Shown piece after piece: positions 760 to 6,919 of a DNA stretch of 64,000 nt. The number at the start of each line of letters is the position of its first letter. Positions within the stretch are counted from its first letter, which is position 1. The notes under the pieces were generated by a model. The model saw only the letters and a list, made by a program, of their open reading frames with translations. It searched no databases and was not told the DNA's origin. The position numbers and the translations under genes are program-made. The stretch covers positions 3,565,575-3,629,574 of the forward strand of contig OZ255631.1 in NCBI GenBank assembly GCA_965276835.1, given 5' to 3'. This stretch comes from Alphaproteobacteria bacterium (lineage in GTDB: Bacteria > Pseudomonadota > Alphaproteobacteria > BOG-932 > Roseiterribacteraceae).

Positions 760-1302
760 ATGACAGCGGCGGACCATAGCGATCGCCTGCAGCTCATGCT
801 CGACAAGCACGAGCTTCGCGAATTGGGCGAGACCTATTGTCGGGGTATCGACCGGCAGGATTTCGCCCTGGTCCGCACGCTCTATCACGACGACGCGATC
901 GACGATCACGGCGATATGTTCAAGGGCGGGCCTGATGACTACGTCGCCTGGCTGCCCACCATCATGGCGATGTGGGACGCGACCGTGCATTCGATCTCCA
1001 ACGCGGTCTATGAAGTCGATGGCGACAAGGCGAACGGCGAACTCTACGTCGTCGCGTATCACCGCACCCACGGCCCCGATGCCAAGGAAATCGTCGTCGG
1101 CGGCCGGTACCTCGACCGCTATGAGAAGCGGGACGGCAGGTGGAAATTCAGCCACCGCTCATTGGCGATGGACTGGTGCAACGTGCGCGACGTGCGCCAG
1201 GAGGATTACGACACCTTCGCCGCCGGCGCGGTGCGGGGACGGCACGACGCGGACGATGCGTCCTATGCCGAATTGCCATTGATGGGGCGGGTCGGCCGTT
1301 AG
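760..1302 (+). CDS. SnoaL-like / NTF2-fold protein
   Basis: YCRGIDRQD, H-x-ISN, GGRYLDRYEKRDGRWKFSHR motifs; begins 2 nt after the SDR stop. Confidence 0.85.
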   Translation: MTAADHSDRLQLMLDKHELRELGETYCRGIDRQDFALVRTLYHDDAIDDHGDMFKGGPDDYVAWLPTIMAMWDATVHSISNAVYEVDGDKANGELYVVAYHRTHGPDAKEIVVGGRYLDRYEKRDGRWKFSHRSLAMDWCNVRDVRQEDYDTFAAGAVRGRHDADDASYAELPLMGRVGR

Positions 1303-2057
1303 CTTCCAGACGGCCGCAAATCCTTCAACCCAGCGAGGTTGACCGGGCGGAACATGCAAAAGAAGCCGTACCAGTCGGCAAGGTCGAGCGTCAGTTCGCT
1401 GTCGGCCTCGGCGATGGTGTCGAAGGCGTCAACGAAGTCGCGGGTCAGCTGCCGAACCCGCTCCAGCGACGATGGCGACAACTTGCCGAAACTGAATTGC
1501 CAATCCGGCGTCGCCATGTCGAACTTGCTGAAGAGATCCTGCAGCATAGCCTCGTGCGCCAGCTTCGCCATCGCGCCGTCCCTTTGAACGCTGAAGTTGC
1601 GGCCGACCATGACCCGTACGCGGTTATAGGGAAACAGCCGGACCAGCCCCAATCGGTCGAGCGCCGTCAGATAGCCGTTCATCGCGGCATCGGTCAGCTG
1701 AAAATCCCGCTGAATGATCGCCGGTGTGAACCCATGCGACAGCAGATAGAAAACCCCTGCCTGGAAGGGATCCCGGACCAGAGCCTCCTCCTCCTCCGGT
1801 GACAGGAACGGCCGTTCCGGTTCTTCCTGCGACATCGCCAGCAGGTCGCTCAAGCGCACGCCCACGACGTGGCAAATATCCTCCATGATCTCGACCGTCA
1901 GGCTATGCCCTGTTAAGTATCGTTTGACCGTCGTCTCGCTGACGTTGAGCCTCTCGGCGACATCTTGATAGAGAAGGCCCTTAGCCTTGAGCATGCTTTT
2001 GAGCGCACGTAGCAATACAGGGATCTCCGATTGATCCTGTTTTAAGCCCCGACTCAT
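1299..2057 (-). CDS. XRE-family HTH transcriptional regulator with long C-terminal domain
   Basis: N-terminal LKSMLKAKGLLYQDVAERLNVSETTVKRYLTG HTH; divergent from the TonB-dependent receptor. Confidence 0.8.
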   Translation of the reverse strand: MSRGLKQDQSEIPVLLRALKSMLKAKGLLYQDVAERLNVSETTVKRYLTGHSLTVEIMEDICHVVGVRLSDLLAMSQEEPERPFLSPEEEEALVRDPFQAGVFYLLSHGFTPAIIQRDFQLTDAAMNGYLTALDRLGLVRLFPYNRVRVMVGRNFSVQRDGAMAKLAHEAMLQDLFSKFDMATPDWQFSFGKLSPSSLERVRQLTRDFVDAFDTIAEADSELTLDLADWYGFFCMFRPVNLAGLKDLRPSGS

Positions 2058-2293: not shown

Positions 2294-5101
2294 ATGACCC
2301 CACGTATCGCCAAAGCCTTGTTGACGTGCACGTGCCTGGCCGGAGCACTATCCGCAACGCCGGCTTTCGCACAGCAGGCGGCACAGCCTTCGGCCGCTAC
2401 CACGGGCCTTGAAGAAATCGTCGTGACAGCGCGGCGCAAGGAAGAAAAGCTTCAGACCGTGCCGGTCGCGATTACCGCCTTCACGGGCGCGCAAATCCAG
2501 AAAGCCAACATCGAATCCTCGTCGGATCTCCAACACCACGTTCCATCGCTGATGAGCAGCCAGCAGTCGCGTGACGAGCAGGTGTTCTATCTGCGTGGCC
2601 AGGGGCCCAATGGCGGTTCCGGCGGGTCGCCCGGCGTCATCGCCTATTTCTCTGAGGTTCCGTTCACCGGATCGGGTCCGGGCATCTATTTCGACCTAGA
2701 CAACCTGCAGGTATTGCGCGGCCCGCAAGGGACATTGTTCGGCCAGAACACGACCGGTGGCGCCGTCCTTTTCGAGCCGAAGCACCCGACCAACAATTAT
2801 GAAGGTTACGTTCAGCTGACCCTGGGTGACTATAACCGGCAGGGCGTCGAGGCGGCGGTCAACATCCCGATCATCGACGACCAACTGCTGCTGCGCGTTG
2901 CGGGATCAAAGGAAACGCGCGACGGCTACACATACAATATCGGCACTCATCAAGATCAGGACAATCGGGATTACTGGTCGGGCCGCATCGGCCTGACTTG
3001 GCGGCCGAGCGACAATTTCGAGAATTATCTCGTTTACGACAGTCTCTATTCGCACACCAACGGCACTGGGTTGGTTTTGCAGGCGATCAATCCGTCTCGG
3101 GATCCGGCGCTGGGCGTGGGACCGGACGGGAAGAATCTGTTTCAGGGTTCCTTTGCGCGCACGTTCGGGCTTCCGACAATTAGGGCCACCCTTGCTGAGC
3201 AGCGGGCTCTGGGGCCTAGGACAATTGATACTGACGTCGACGGTCTGGATAAGACCTACAGTTGGGGAATAACCGATATCGCGCGGTGGGATGTGGCGGA
3301 CAACGTTACACTTAAGAACATCCTGGCATACCGGGAGATCAAAAATCTCTTGCGCGGCGATTTCGACGGGACACCCCTTATACAGGGCGAATACACGACG
3401 CCGGACGGCTGGGAAATCAACAACGCCCAGTATTCGGACGAAATCCAGCTTCAGGGCAAAGCTCTCGATGACAAACTGAGCTGGATCGGCGGTGCGTTCT
3501 TTGAATTCCTGCACCCCGCCGGATTTACCCAAGCCGTTGTTCCGACCACAACCTTGATCGGAGGCCTGCCAGCCTACGCGGCAGTCTTTGGGAACGCGTA
3601 TGGCCAGAATGCGCTAGGCCCGGAAGGCGAAACGACCCGAACAGAGGCTTTGTTCTTGCAGGGAACCTATGATCTCGGCGGGATTTCGCCAATTCTGGAT
3701 GGTCTGAAGTTCACCGCAGGCGCTCGGTATACGTGGGACTATCGCAGTAACAGCAACTTCTCGACGATCGTCATCAAACTTCCGGCAGCGTTCGGTGGCG
3801 GTAACCTGACGATTCCATGCGGCCCCGCCAGCGGACTGGCCTGTACTTACGCCAACCATACGTTCCAGGCACCGACCTGGACTCTGGGACTGGACTATCA
3901 GGTCACGCCCGACACCTTGCTCTATGTAAAGAGCAGCCGCGGCTTTAAGGCCGGCGGGTTCAATGGGGCAGGCGGCGTTCTGTTTCCGAACAAGTATGAA
4001 TCGGAGTTTGTCACCGACGTGGAGGTCGGCGCAAAGGTCGATTGGGACATTGCGGGCATCAAGGCTAGAACAAATATCGACGGTTTCCATGACGATTACC
4101 GCAATGCGCAACGCGCAATCGGCGTCCAGTTCGATCTCGTTCCCGGCGATGCCTCGACAGCCAACTCAACGACGGTCATCGCCAACGGCAACGCCGAGAT
4201 TCAGGGCGTCGAATTCGAGGGCACTATCTTGCCGTTCACTGGACTCGAATTGACCGCGAGCTGGTCCTATGTCGACGCGAAATACACGCAGTTCATCATC
4301 CCAACCATCGGGGACCGGACCTATTTGCCCTACCCCTTCGTGCCGAAAAACAAGTTCGGTTTCACGGCGGATTACACGCTTCCGTTCGTGCCGGAGGACA
4401 TGGGGGATGTCCATCTGATCGGCAGCTATGTCCATACCGGTCGAATTCAGTATTCCACCGATTCGACCGAGCCTTTCGGTGACGAGCCGGGTTACGGTTT
4501 GCTCGATGTTCGCCTCAACTGGAACAATGTAGCCGGGCAGCCGATCGACGCCTCGTTCTTCATGACGAACGTCACGGACAACCTGTATTCGATCGGCAAA
4601 TTCGGCATTTACACCACGGAAGGTTTCGTCAGCCAGCTTTATGGCGAACCGCAAATGTGGGGCTTCTCGGTGAAATACCGCTTCGGCGAAAACTCCGAGC
4701 CCGAGGCAGAACCGGCGGCCTATGTGCCGCCGCCGGTTCAGGCGCCGGCACCCGCACCGCGCAGCTATCTGGTGTTCTTCGACTTCAACAAGTCGGATCT
4801 GACATCGCAAGCGGTCGCGATTGTCGACACGGCGGCGAAGAATGCCGGTCCGGCCAAGGTCACGCAGCTGACCGTCACCGGTCACACCGATACGGTCGGC
4901 TCGGACGCCTACAACATGCGCCTGTCCCGCCGCCGCGCGGAATCGGTTGCGGCGCAGCTGGAGAAGGACGGCATCGCGTCATCCGAGATCGAGATCGTTG
5001 CCAAGGGCAAGCGCGACCTGCTGGTCCCGACCGGCGACGGGGTTCGCGAACCCCAGAACCGGCGCGTCCAGATCGTTTATTCCGGTGGCGCGACTTCGTA
5101 A
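2294..5101 (+). CDS. TonB-dependent receptor with C-terminal OmpA-like domain (fusion)
   Basis: Signal peptide, TonB box EEIVVTA, plug motif VLRGPQGTLFGQNTTGGAV, barrel ending GFSVKYRF at aa 797, Pro-rich linker, then VFFDFNKS...GHTDTVGSDAYNMRLSRRRAESV...NRRVQI. Confidence 0.92.
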   Translation: MTPRIAKALLTCTCLAGALSATPAFAQQAAQPSAATTGLEEIVVTARRKEEKLQTVPVAITAFTGAQIQKANIESSSDLQHHVPSLMSSQQSRDEQVFYLRGQGPNGGSGGSPGVIAYFSEVPFTGSGPGIYFDLDNLQVLRGPQGTLFGQNTTGGAVLFEPKHPTNNYEGYVQLTLGDYNRQGVEAAVNIPIIDDQLLLRVAGSKETRDGYTYNIGTHQDQDNRDYWSGRIGLTWRPSDNFENYLVYDSLYSHTNGTGLVLQAINPSRDPALGVGPDGKNLFQGSFARTFGLPTIRATLAEQRALGPRTIDTDVDGLDKTYSWGITDIARWDVADNVTLKNILAYREIKNLLRGDFDGTPLIQGEYTTPDGWEINNAQYSDEIQLQGKALDDKLSWIGGAFFEFLHPAGFTQAVVPTTTLIGGLPAYAAVFGNAYGQNALGPEGETTRTEALFLQGTYDLGGISPILDGLKFTAGARYTWDYRSNSNFSTIVIKLPAAFGGGNLTIPCGPASGLACTYANHTFQAPTWTLGLDYQVTPDTLLYVKSSRGFKAGGFNGAGGVLFPNKYESEFVTDVEVGAKVDWDIAGIKARTNIDGFHDDYRNAQRAIGVQFDLVPGDASTANSTTVIANGNAEIQGVEFEGTILPFTGLELTASWSYVDAKYTQFIIPTIGDRTYLPYPFVPKNKFGFTADYTLPFVPEDMGDVHLIGSYVHTGRIQYSTDSTEPFGDEPGYGLLDVRLNWNNVAGQPIDASFFMTNVTDNLYSIGKFGIYTTEGFVSQLYGEPQMWGFSVKYRFGENSEPEAEPAAYVPPPVQAPAPAPRSYLVFFDFNKSDLTSQAVAIVDTAAKNAGPAKVTQLTVTGHTDTVGSDAYNMRLSRRRAESVAAQLEKDGIASSEIEIVAKGKRDLLVPTGDGVREPQNRRVQIVYSGGATS

Positions 5102-5121
5102 GCCGCGCGCATAGTCAAAAG

Positions 5122-5155
5122 AAAGCGGCGCTCCCTCGGGGGCACCGCTTTTTTG
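5122..5155. terminator. bidirectional intrinsic terminator
   Basis: AAAGCGG...CCGCTTT stem with T-run on + and A-run upstream, between convergent genes. Confidence 0.8.
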
Positions 5156-5160
5156 TTGGT

Positions 5161-6366
5161 TCACGACGGGAGCAAAAGCTCGCCGTTTTTCACGAAGAAT
5201 TTCTCCATCACCGCCGGCCCCAACCGTTCCAGCCGCTTGGCGAAACGACCCATCGGGTCCTTGCCGCCTTCCAGATGGGGGAAGTCGCTGGCATAGCAAT
5301 AGACGTCTTCTAGACCATACCGGTCGATATAATCATCGACAGGCTCGAAATCGAAAGCCGTCACCCGCACGTTGCGGCGGATAAATTCGGACGGTTTCAT
5401 CGACAGCGGGATGGTCTTGGTTTTCGAGAATAGCTGGTTGTGTTCGTGCCACATATCGAGCGAACTGGCGAGCGGGCCGATCCAGAACGATCCCACCTCG
5501 ATCACACCGAAGCGCAAAGTCGGGTGACGGTCGAATACTCCGCCATTCACCATCGTCGCCAGAAAATTCTGGGTCGGCAGGTGGATAATCGACAGGTTCC
5601 AGGGGCTCAGATTCACCTCGCCGGTGGTCTTGTAACCCTCGAAGGCCGGGGCATCGCCCCAGGCGTCGGTCTTCAGAAACCCGCCCTCGCTGCCGATATG
5701 CAGCGTGGCGGTCGCGTCACGCTCGGTGATCAGCTGCCAGAACGGGTCGAGGTCGGTATCGGCGGGCGATTTCCCGCCAGGAAGAATGGCACTCATGATC
5801 AGAATCGCACGTATGCCGCTGTCCAGCAGATGACGGGTATTGGCGACCAGGTCATTCACTGTGTCGCCATAGACGACCGGCACCGGGCGAATGCGGTCGG
5901 ACACTTTGGCGGCGCGGATCGCCCAGTTGTTGTTGGCGTCGAACAGCGCCCGGCCATAGGCTTTCCGGTCGCCCTTGAACTGCGGCATGAAACCGTATTC
6001 TGGCGGAAAGTTGAACAGCATGGAGCCGAAGACCGCGACCGCCGAGGGAAACATCATCTGCCGGGCGACCCCCGTGCGATCCATGATCTCGACACGGCGC
6101 GCCGGATCGACCGCGCCTGGCGCTGCGGGGCCCTTCATCCGCCAGATCGTTTCATCGGTCAGCGGCGCGTCGTCTTTTTTGTACTCGGGAAAATTTGCAC
6201 CTGTCGGATCGTTCGGCGGCAGCTGCTGGAAGATGCTGGCGAATTCGTCGGTGGCCGCGCCGAATTCCTGGCGCCAGAGCTGCGATGGAATCATCTCATG
6301 CGTGTCGACATCGATGATGCGCCCGGCATAGGCCGCCAACGCCTCGGGTATCGCGAGAGTCCCCAT
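5161..6366 (-). CDS. amidohydrolase family protein (Amidohydro_2-like)
   Basis: IIDVDTHE, TLHIG, YASDFPHLEG metal-site motifs; start moved to ATG at 6366. Confidence 0.85.
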   Translation of the reverse strand: MGTLAIPEALAAYAGRIIDVDTHEMIPSQLWRQEFGAATDEFASIFQQLPPNDPTGANFPEYKKDDAPLTDETIWRMKGPAAPGAVDPARRVEIMDRTGVARQMMFPSAVAVFGSMLFNFPPEYGFMPQFKGDRKAYGRALFDANNNWAIRAAKVSDRIRPVPVVYGDTVNDLVANTRHLLDSGIRAILIMSAILPGGKSPADTDLDPFWQLITERDATATLHIGSEGGFLKTDAWGDAPAFEGYKTTGEVNLSPWNLSIIHLPTQNFLATMVNGGVFDRHPTLRFGVIEVGSFWIGPLASSLDMWHEHNQLFSKTKTIPLSMKPSEFIRRNVRVTAFDFEPVDDYIDRYGLEDVYCYASDFPHLEGGKDPMGRFAKRLERLGPAVMEKFFVKNGELLLPS

Positions 6367-6457
6367 AAATCTTGCCTTCCTATCCGACTTTATGTCGTAT
6401 GAGTGCTGGCACTTTAACGCCAAAACGGCCCAACACGCACTGCAAAGCGACCCGCCC

Positions 6458-6919
6458 ATGGAAATCGACTATCGCGATATCGAGAGCATGCGGGCTGCGA
6501 TCGATCCGAACTTTACCGCCTGGAGCAACACGGTCGAAGTCACGCAGGAACTGATCGACGATTTCGCCCGGCTGTCGGGCGACGATTATTGGATTCATAC
6601 CGACCCCGCGCGGGCGCAGGCGGAAAGCCCATATGGCACAACGATCGCGCACGGCATGCTGGTGCAGTCCCTGGTCGGACGCCTTGCCATGAAAACCCCG
6701 TTCGAGGTCACCGGTTTCCGCAACATGGTGAATTACGGCTCGGCCCGGCTGCGCTTTCCGACGCCTGTGCCGGCCGGCAGCGCCATCCATGCAAGATGCC
6801 GAGTCAAACAGGTCAAGCCGACAGGCCCGGGCACGCTGCTGACGCTGGAAATCCACATCCACGTGGTCGGCAACGACCGCCCGAGCGTCACCAACGAGGT
6901 TCTTATCCTCTATATGTGA
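6458..6919 (+). CDS. MaoC-family dehydratase
   Basis: DDFARLSGDDYWIHTD, TIAHGMLVQSL, NYGSARLRFPTPV; start moved to ATG 6458. Confidence 0.88.
   Translation: MEIDYRDIESMRAAIDPNFTAWSNTVEVTQELIDDFARLSGDDYWIHTDPARAQAESPYGTTIAHGMLVQSLVGRLAMKTPFEVTGFRNMVNYGSARLRFPTPVPAGSAIHARCRVKQVKPTGPGTLLTLEIHIHVVGNDRPSVTNEVLILYM

Follow-up and report, generated by a model that had tools for sequence, protein, structure and literature searches.

TonB-dependent receptors ending in a shared OmpA-like domain: a probable recombining wall-anchoring cassette in an uncultured alphaproteobacterial order

In textbook accounts, TonB-dependent transporters (TBDTs, or TonB-dependent receptors) stop at the last strand of their outer membrane β-barrel. 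What, then, are we to make of a receptor gene that runs on past that strand into a second domain? The gene in question lies at positions 2294–5101, on the plus strand, of a 64,000-nucleotide (nt) stretch of contig OZ255631.1 (assembly GCA_965276835.1, an alphaproteobacterium), which we call the window. It is a single open reading frame (ORF), as an initial annotation made from the sequence had claimed, and encodes a 935-residue TonB-dependent receptor followed by a hinge and an OmpA-like domain. The window is part of a single 6.03-Mb contig, and the gene census below covers that genome; positions prefixed C1 refer to the contig and all others to the window. Our answer, which we hold to be probable, is that the receptor and an OmpA-type hinge and domain have been joined in cis, with the hinge and domain behaving as a recombining cassette that anchors the transporter to the cell wall.

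The receptor part of the protein is complete, with a TonB box, a plug and a barrel in place. A signal peptide read from the sequence occupies amino acids (aa) 1–26 (2294–2371; MTPRIAKALLTCTCLAGALSATPAFA, then QQ), its putative cleavage site (…ATPAFA, then QQ) having been placed by eye. Further along is GLEEIVVTA (aa 38–46; 2405–2431), which we take by eye, against the known consensus, to be the TonB box; none of E40, E41, V44 and A46 varies among 70 homologues. The Plug domain (aa 53–157; 2450–2764) matches PF07715 at 35.9 bits against a cut-off of 23.9 and is modelled at a per-residue confidence (pLDDT) of 80–90. The transmembrane β-barrel (aa ~170–797; 2801–4684) is identified by PF00593 (E 4.9e-31), by AlphaFold2 strands and by Foldseek, and the TonB_dep_Rec_b-barrel match itself spans aa 279–744, above the curated cut-off. 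A Pfam scan found no STN domain in the protein.

The barrel closes with the normal last strand that had been annotated, MWGFSVKYRF (4655–4684), the β-signal of the β-barrel assembly machinery (BAM), which is internal here. GFSVKYRF ends at aa 797 (nt 4684), and the AlphaFold2 model places the strand at aa 788–798. Rather than ending at this terminal aromatic, the chain runs 138 residues beyond F797. It passes first through the annotated Pro/Ala linker, GENSEPEAEPAAYVPPPVQAPAPAPR, a hinge of 26 Pro, Ala and Glu-rich residues (aa 798–823; 4685–4762; pLDDT below 50) with which the cassette starts, and then into the OmpA-like peptidoglycan-binding domain (aa 824–929; 4763–5080; PF00691, E 2.7e-18). 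This domain was called complete, and it is: the Pfam match (aa 828–923) covers profile positions 1–98 of 98 at 66.5 bits against a cut-off of 27.2, and both the fold and the contact Asp and Arg are present. The NCBIfam model of E. coli OmpA aligns with aa 787–918, spanning the hinge into the domain. The protein is thus a TBDT in every tested respect except the end of its chain, and its tail is OmpA-like in every tested respect.

Structure prediction agrees with this division. In a full-length AlphaFold2 model built on a 70-sequence alignment, the plug and barrel are confident (pLDDT mostly 80–95), aa 802–823 are disordered, and a β-α-β-α-β-β unit follows. The best 50 Foldseek matches of this model in the PDB are all solved TBDTs, FyuA, FhuA and Fiu among them, with a template-modelling (TM) score of 0.83 on the target for FyuA (4epa); PF00593 and Foldseek together identify the 22-strand barrel of the family. 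The tail scores only pLDDT 47–72 in the full-length model, probably due to the near-invariant tails in the alignment. A model of the tail alone, built on more varied sequences, has pLDDT 84 and a predicted TM score of 0.81 and shows the OmpA fold. Foldseek matches this model to OprF (5u1h, TM 0.81), to Pal (1oap, root-mean-square deviation 1.9 Å) and to the OmpA-like domain of Acinetobacter baumannii in complex with a peptidoglycan pentapeptide (3td5), with TM scores of 0.76–0.86 across OprF, Pal and A. baumannii OmpA-like domains. A sequence alignment with E. coli Pal (1oap/2hqs, E 3e-12) extends over the full length of the tail.

OmpA-like domains bind peptidoglycan through a conserved Asp and Arg. 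In the focal tail, the segment from D866 to R881 (GHTD...RRRA; 4889–4936) carries the residues that, by motif and spacing, would hold diaminopimelate; both are invariant in 70 of 70 homologues and in 9 of 9 diverse tails, the genome's own Pal included. In A. baumannii OmpA, Asp271 and Arg286 hold diaminopimelate (PMC5974059). Sharing the same motif and the same 15-residue spacing, D866 and R881 appear to correspond to Asp271 and Arg286, a mapping that is our own. Peptidoglycan binding by the tail is accordingly predicted from motif and model.

Several lines of evidence bear on whether the frame is real. The same three domains occur in every full-length match among the best 120 homologues, which come from JGI, ENA and NCBI assemblies, and independently assembled homologues with the architecture number more than 100. 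In four public runs, short-read contigs match the window from 4300 to 4747–4780 with zero differences, crossing the barrel end and the hinge; a stop or misassembly behind the barrel, the outcome that would have undone the initial annotation, was looked for in these contigs and none was seen up to 4747–4780. The runs possibly come from the same sample as the assembly and hence are not independent, and the paralogues and homologues are the stronger argument against an artefact. The same contigs break inside the tail, where word depth climbs from 6–15 in unique sequence to as much as 2800. Such a rise in depth together with contig breaks is the signature of a high-copy repeat and not of a misjoin. 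Were the tail a gene of its own, it would need a start codon, a ribosome-binding site and a signal peptide, and the ORF sequence shows none of these for it. Because homologues share the three domains, 43 paralogues carry the tail in frame and contigs cross the junction, the fusion is not a product of chance or misassembly.

The repeat has a practical side. Public short-read assemblies break across 4734–5074 of the window, where word depth is up to ~200-fold higher, and several database homologues end near the hinge. A tail repeat of ~400 nt in 47 copies breaks short-read assemblies at receptor genes, and the receptor genes of this lineage will be systematically shortened in short-read metagenome-assembled genomes (MAGs).

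The focal gene is one of many. The genome holds 73 Plug domains above threshold and 52 OmpA domains, and the paralogue count that the initial annotation called for gives 43 of the 73 TonB-dependent receptors with plug, barrel and a shared tail of ~135 residues in frame. The recurring unit begins right behind the terminal aromatic of the barrel and consists of G(G/E)xSEPEAAPAAYVPPPVxAPAPAP plus the domain. Its AAYVPPPV hinge motif is common to the paralogues and to a 381-aa OmpA-type protein of the same genome. A 44th tailed receptor (C1:4272082-4274921) has a one-base frameshift in the hinge: its barrel frame ends ...KYRFVADNE and the tail resumes in another frame from AEATTAYVPPP. This copy could be a pseudogene or reflect a long-read homopolymer error.

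The cassette also occurs outside the receptor family, although 44 of its 47 copies sit on TonB-dependent receptors. The 381-aa protein (C1:2884983-2886128, minus strand) is an OmpA-type eight-strand barrel with the same hinge and OmpA cassette. A PagL-like lipid A deacylase barrel of 312 aa (C1:2628338-2629276, minus strand) carries it at its C-terminal side, and a wall-anchored PagL is unusual in itself. In a BBP2 porin of 548 aa (C1:4120051-4121697, plus strand) the cassette stands at the N-terminus. The genome's separate Pal (C1:2667490-2668053) is 34% identical to the tail.

The initial annotation had contrasted the fusion with receptors that end at the Phe recognised by BAM. That rule holds for most of the 29 unfused receptors of this genome, whose chains finish no more than two residues from the aligned terminal residue, usually F, Y or W, with the exception of the one at C1:1782535, which runs on for 8 residues; an internal β-signal, on the other hand, is not exceptional, OmpA and OprF being built alike. 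The main fused clade contains two receptors that lack the tail, C1:4675521-4678172 (plus strand), which ends ...HYRFGP, and C1:1782535-1785282 (minus strand), which ends ...RYRFGPHTDQDF; these are probably recent losses of the cassette. The former lies directly upstream of a fused paralogue. Two further unfused receptors, C1:4876167-4878362 (minus strand) and C1:5940818-5943076 (plus strand), are near identical (branch lengths 0.056 and 0), which suggests a recent segmental duplication ~1 Mb apart. An NCBIfam scan, which covered 20 of the 29 unfused receptors and only the focal gene among the fused ones, placed siderophore receptors (Fiu-like and FhuA/FoxA-like, above the TIGR01783 cut-off), a TOL_0244 receptor and B12/heme-like receptors in the unfused set. 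In the barrel tree, one fused gene nests with a Fiu-like pair.

What keeps the tails so alike? Over the 43 fused copies (903 pairs), amino acid identity was 0.41 in the plug, 0.27 in the barrel, 0.60 in the hinge and 0.94 in the OmpA domain. At identical residues the same codon was used at frequencies of 0.48, 0.48, 0.51 and 0.63, respectively, against an expectation of 0.50 from the tails' own codon usage. These figures suggest that the tails coalesce far more recently than the barrels that carry them. Nucleotide identity of the tails was 0.84, and Nei-Gojobori estimates over the 903 pairs gave a nonsynonymous divergence (dN) of 0.05, a median synonymous divergence (dS) of 0.70 and a ratio (omega) of ~0.06, which indicates strong purifying selection on the tail protein. 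We rejected recent wholesale gene conversion as an explanation, given the many synonymous differences (identity 0.84, dS 0.7). Those differences imply that conversion was episodic and that selection is the chief cause of the protein likeness.

Comparison with relatives pointed to concerted evolution of the cassette. For this we used the fused genes of three species, two from the same genus and one from a sister genus. In 23 of 26 reciprocal-best orthologue pairs, whose barrels are 60–89% identical, the tail is nearer to the average paralogue in its own genome than to the tail of its orthologue, and orthologous tails are no more alike than any pair of tails across genomes. Genome-specific residues can be seen by eye: VTKLEV…EIIAKG…YEGG in one genome, …VFDGG in another and …PTGDGV…YSGG in the focal genome. 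Mapped onto the tail DNA tree, the genome label requires 12 changes; shuffled labels require 30.8, and in 200 shuffles the number was never that low. On the barrel tree the label requires 33, which is essentially random. Tail dS is 0.61–0.80 within genomes and 0.76–0.96 between them, with orthologous barrels at ~1.0.

The barrels record a history of their own. The fused state requires 12 changes when mapped onto a tree of all 73 barrels. Well-supported branches force at least 10 of them, and fused genes nest within otherwise unfused deep clades. In pairs whose barrels are ~26% identical, nucleotide identity steps up at the hinge, from ~0.3–0.55 to 0.87–1.00 at about −400 to −370 nt from the stop codon. 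It drops again at the stop or, in some pairs, ~50 nt past it, after a shared spacer and terminator hairpin. In the focal gene this flank (5102–5155, plus strand) consists of the 3′ spacer, a terminator-like site at 5130–5143 and a T run, and flank alignment shows it nearly unchanged in the paralogue C1:2267397-2270138 (identity 0.90–1.00, ~50 nt past the stop). A similar spacer and terminator lie behind ~20 tails; in these paralogues the tail is accompanied by the non-coding spacer (…CGGCATAGCCAAA…) and the hairpin (CGGCGCTCC-TTCG-GGGGCGCCG plus T run). One ancestral fusion followed by duplication alone was rejected, given the at least 10 state changes and the non-coding flanks common to unrelated genes. 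Together, the grouping of tails by genome, the state changes on the barrel tree, the identity steps and the shared flanks show that episodic gene conversion or ectopic recombination has both homogenised the tails and installed them on new barrels.

The initial annotation had suggested a lineage-wide architecture, and the distribution of the cassette bears this out. In GTDB, the order of the source genome comprises 11 species in one family and three genera. Counting cassette-like matches at E ≤ 1e-25, we found ~12–47 in genomes of the same genus and 17 in the sister genus. In the third genus there are small OmpA proteins and a single fused receptor, of 875 or 882 aa and with the hinge …AAYVAPVQ…. 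In other families of the class, cassette-like matches occurred only in frames of at most 520 aa. By the match counts across the three genera, the fusion is older than the family and the expansion younger. The fused state is kept across at least nine species of two genera, and the expansion is limited to these two of the three genera in a small, uncultured alphaproteobacterial order. The relatives are uncultured and known from bog and soil MAGs labelled 'Rhodospirillales' or 'Alphaproteobacteria'.

How might such a protein work? Both ends of a 22-strand barrel are periplasmic, and OmpA and OprF have an internal β-signal and a Pro/Ala hinge and are uncleaved. We propose that, after export by Sec, BAM would fold the barrel using ...GFSVKYRF as an internal β-signal, as it does in OmpA and OprF. 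The chain would leave the barrel at the periplasmic side, the ~26-residue Pro/Ala/Glu hinge would span the distance to the cell wall, and the OmpA-like domain would hold the diaminopimelate of peptidoglycan stems non-covalently via D866 and R881. Every transporter would then be a staple joining the outer membrane to the wall and would itself be held in place. The hinge and domain are those of the lineage's own OmpA-type protein and, with the spacer and terminator in ~20 copies, form a DNA cassette. Ectopic recombination or gene conversion has carried it onto many unrelated receptor genes and keeps the copies of one genome alike, while the protein sequence is maintained by very strong purifying selection. 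We infer that the tail is retained on the mature protein, bound to the wall and beneficial. Two benefits are conceivable, singly or together: a tethered envelope where receptors dominate the outer membrane, and better TonB coupling. There is precedent for such a membrane in Caulobacter, whose major outer membrane proteins are all TonB-dependent receptors (PMC2797634).

The individual parts of this arrangement are familiar from known systems. The focal protein shares with E. coli OmpA and Pseudomonas aeruginosa OprF a last strand ...YRF-G, a Pro/Ala hinge, an OmpA_C domain and a β-signal that is internal. It differs in that its membrane part is a plug-filled, 22-strand TBDT of ~800 residues, where theirs is an eight-strand barrel, and in that its tail is common to dozens of genes; within this genome, the small barrel of OmpA and OprF is found in the 381-aa paralogue (C1:2884983-2886128) and not in the focal protein. 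Of all matches to the tail, Pal (1oap, 2hqs, 2aiz) is the best in sequence and in structure, and it has the same GHxD...RRA contact motif, but Pal is lipid-anchored and works with TolB, whereas the domain here would be anchored by a transporter barrel. FecA and FpvA, with their N-terminal signalling domain, and SusC, with its N-terminal extension, are likewise plug-barrel transporters with an added periplasmic domain. Their extra domains are N-terminal and serve anti-sigma signalling or aid TonB, whereas the putative wall-binding module here is C-terminal.

By analogy, RmpM, the class 4 protein of Neisseria, would be the closest functional counterpart. According to PMC8497027, RmpM is an OmpA-like domain protein that links TBDTs (TbpA, LbpA, FrpB) and porins to peptidoglycan. 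It is found in complexes with TbpA, LbpA and FrpB, and cells that lose it grow less well on lactoferrin (Prinz and Tommassen 2000, as relayed in PMC8497027). RmpM is a separate polypeptide acting non-covalently in trans, unlike the covalent cis fusion seen here, which fixes a 1:1 stoichiometry. The combination would resemble OmpA and OprF below the membrane and RmpM–receptor complexes in effect, while being a member of neither group. Our literature search on TBDTs combined with an OmpA-like domain, C-terminal extension, architecture and peptidoglycan turned up no description of the fusion.

Several observations weigh against the anchoring cassette as we propose it. Most receptors recognisable as siderophore, TOL_0244 or B12/heme-like types lack the tail, which is therefore not required for TonB-dependent transport as such. 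Since Pal and an OmpA-type protein are retained in the genome, the envelope does not depend on the tails as its sole tether. AAYVPPPV is more conserved than a passive spacer requires and could mark a processing or docking site. The median tail dS of 0.7 is substantial, which makes homogenisation slow and episodic, and genome-specific composition could account for part of the clustering of tails by genome. Finally, the anchoring, the mature fused form and any phenotype are predictions read from sequence and structural models.

A different emphasis, which we think unlikely, makes wall anchoring part of transport itself: the tail would mainly position or brace the transporter for TonB, rather than staple the envelope in general, near gaps in the wall or against the pulling of the plug, as a cis version of RmpM. 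The barrel, held at peptidoglycan pores, would stay put as the pull of TonB unfolds the plug. RmpM has been proposed to aid TonB coupling, and a model in which transporters cluster at peptidoglycan gaps has been described (PMC8497027). The presence of the cassette on TonB-dependent receptors in 44 of 47 copies fits this emphasis, as does the persistence of Pal and the OmpA-type protein for ordinary tethering. However, the OmpA-type, PagL-like and BBP2 barrels carry the cassette yet use no TonB, 30 receptors, clear siderophore types included, lack the tail, and receptors are the most numerous large barrel genes, so that the bias may be one of opportunity. If bracing were the main role, 43 receptors would be hard-wired with what Neisseria achieves in trans by RmpM, and the spread of the cassette would be an adaptive 'upgrading' of single transporters.

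It is less probable still that the tail is a pro-domain, with a periplasmic protease cutting the hinge after assembly to leave a receptor that ends near the Phe and to release a free OmpA-like protein. Such processing would suit the unusual conservation of the hinge (0.60 amino acid identity, AAYVPPPV near-invariant), the unfused receptors of the same genome that mostly finish in a terminal aromatic, and the two receptors in the main fused clade that end after ...RYRFGP, which make a tail-less product viable. Yet OmpA and OprF retain the same layout uncleaved, the identical hinge is found on the genome's own OmpA-type protein, and conservation of the hinge is expected because the conversion tract starts there. 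Once freed, the domain would no longer be anchored to the membrane, and maintaining 43 genes to produce a single soluble protein would be expensive.

We give little credence to a third alternative, in which the cassette is a near-neutral or selfish 3′ module spread by gene conversion with no specific benefit to the receptors. Its sharp conversion boundaries and co-transferred non-coding flank would be at home in that scenario, as would a fused state that was gained or lost repeatedly on the barrel tree, one copy with a frameshift and two receptors that appear to have lost the tail. Against it, an omega of ~0.06 over 903 pairs at a dS of ~0.7 means that each copy has long been under purifying selection; 43 of 44 copies are intact, and the fused state has been retained in at least nine species of two genera. 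An error of assembly or gene calling, in which a stop or frameshift separating a receptor gene from an ompA-like gene was missed, has almost no chance of being the source of the fusion and is refuted as far as sequence data allow: short-read assemblers do collapse a ~47-copy tail repeat (depth 2800 against 6–15) and one copy does have a frameshift, but the frame is open in 43 paralogues and more than 100 independently assembled homologues, contigs span the junction without a difference, and a separate tail gene would have no start, ribosome-binding site or signal peptide.

The surroundings of the focal gene bear on its regulation and substrate. Upstream and divergently transcribed is a 252-aa XRE-type helix-turn-helix regulator (1299–2057, minus strand; Pfam HTH_26/HTH_3), which is 69–72% identical to, and in the same position as, its counterpart beside the receptor orthologue in L001 and L002 (our labels). 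The genome contains ten paralogues of this regulator, proteins of ~250–340 aa whose C-terminal part is uncharacterised. Of the 11 XRE-type genes, five start at most 5 kb from a TonB-dependent receptor and two more lie at most ~7.5 kb away, and these proteins may be a dedicated regulator family of the uptake loci. A promoter scan gave no hit.

Downstream, an Amidohydro_2 enzyme (5161–6459, minus strand) belongs to a syntenic catabolic neighbourhood; the focal gene lies among SDR, SnoaL, Amidohydro_2, MaoC and cupin genes, an arrangement kept at an orthologous locus. From these neighbours, an organic nutrient is more likely than iron as the substrate. The NCBIfam scan of the focal protein returned no substrate-specific match, only generic siderophore-receptor models below threshold. 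Homologues are named 'iron complex outer membrane receptor' or 'OmpA family protein' in databases, and the former label is probably misleading for these genes.

How TBDTs are arranged relative to the wall, and how anchoring affects their energy coupling, is known from indirect work on RmpM only. This lineage is a natural test of whether wall-fastened transporters work better: dozens of cis fusions beside unfused paralogues, together with recent tail losses, offer a built-in comparison of uptake kinetics, mobility and envelope strength. As a periplasmic anchor domain carried in a portable 3′ cassette, the tail is also an unusually large bacterial example of concerted evolution at the level of a domain. 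To our knowledge, Alphaproteobacteria lack Braun's lipoprotein, and the fused receptors would provide them with a third tie between outer membrane and wall, besides Pal/OmpA and covalent barrel linkage.

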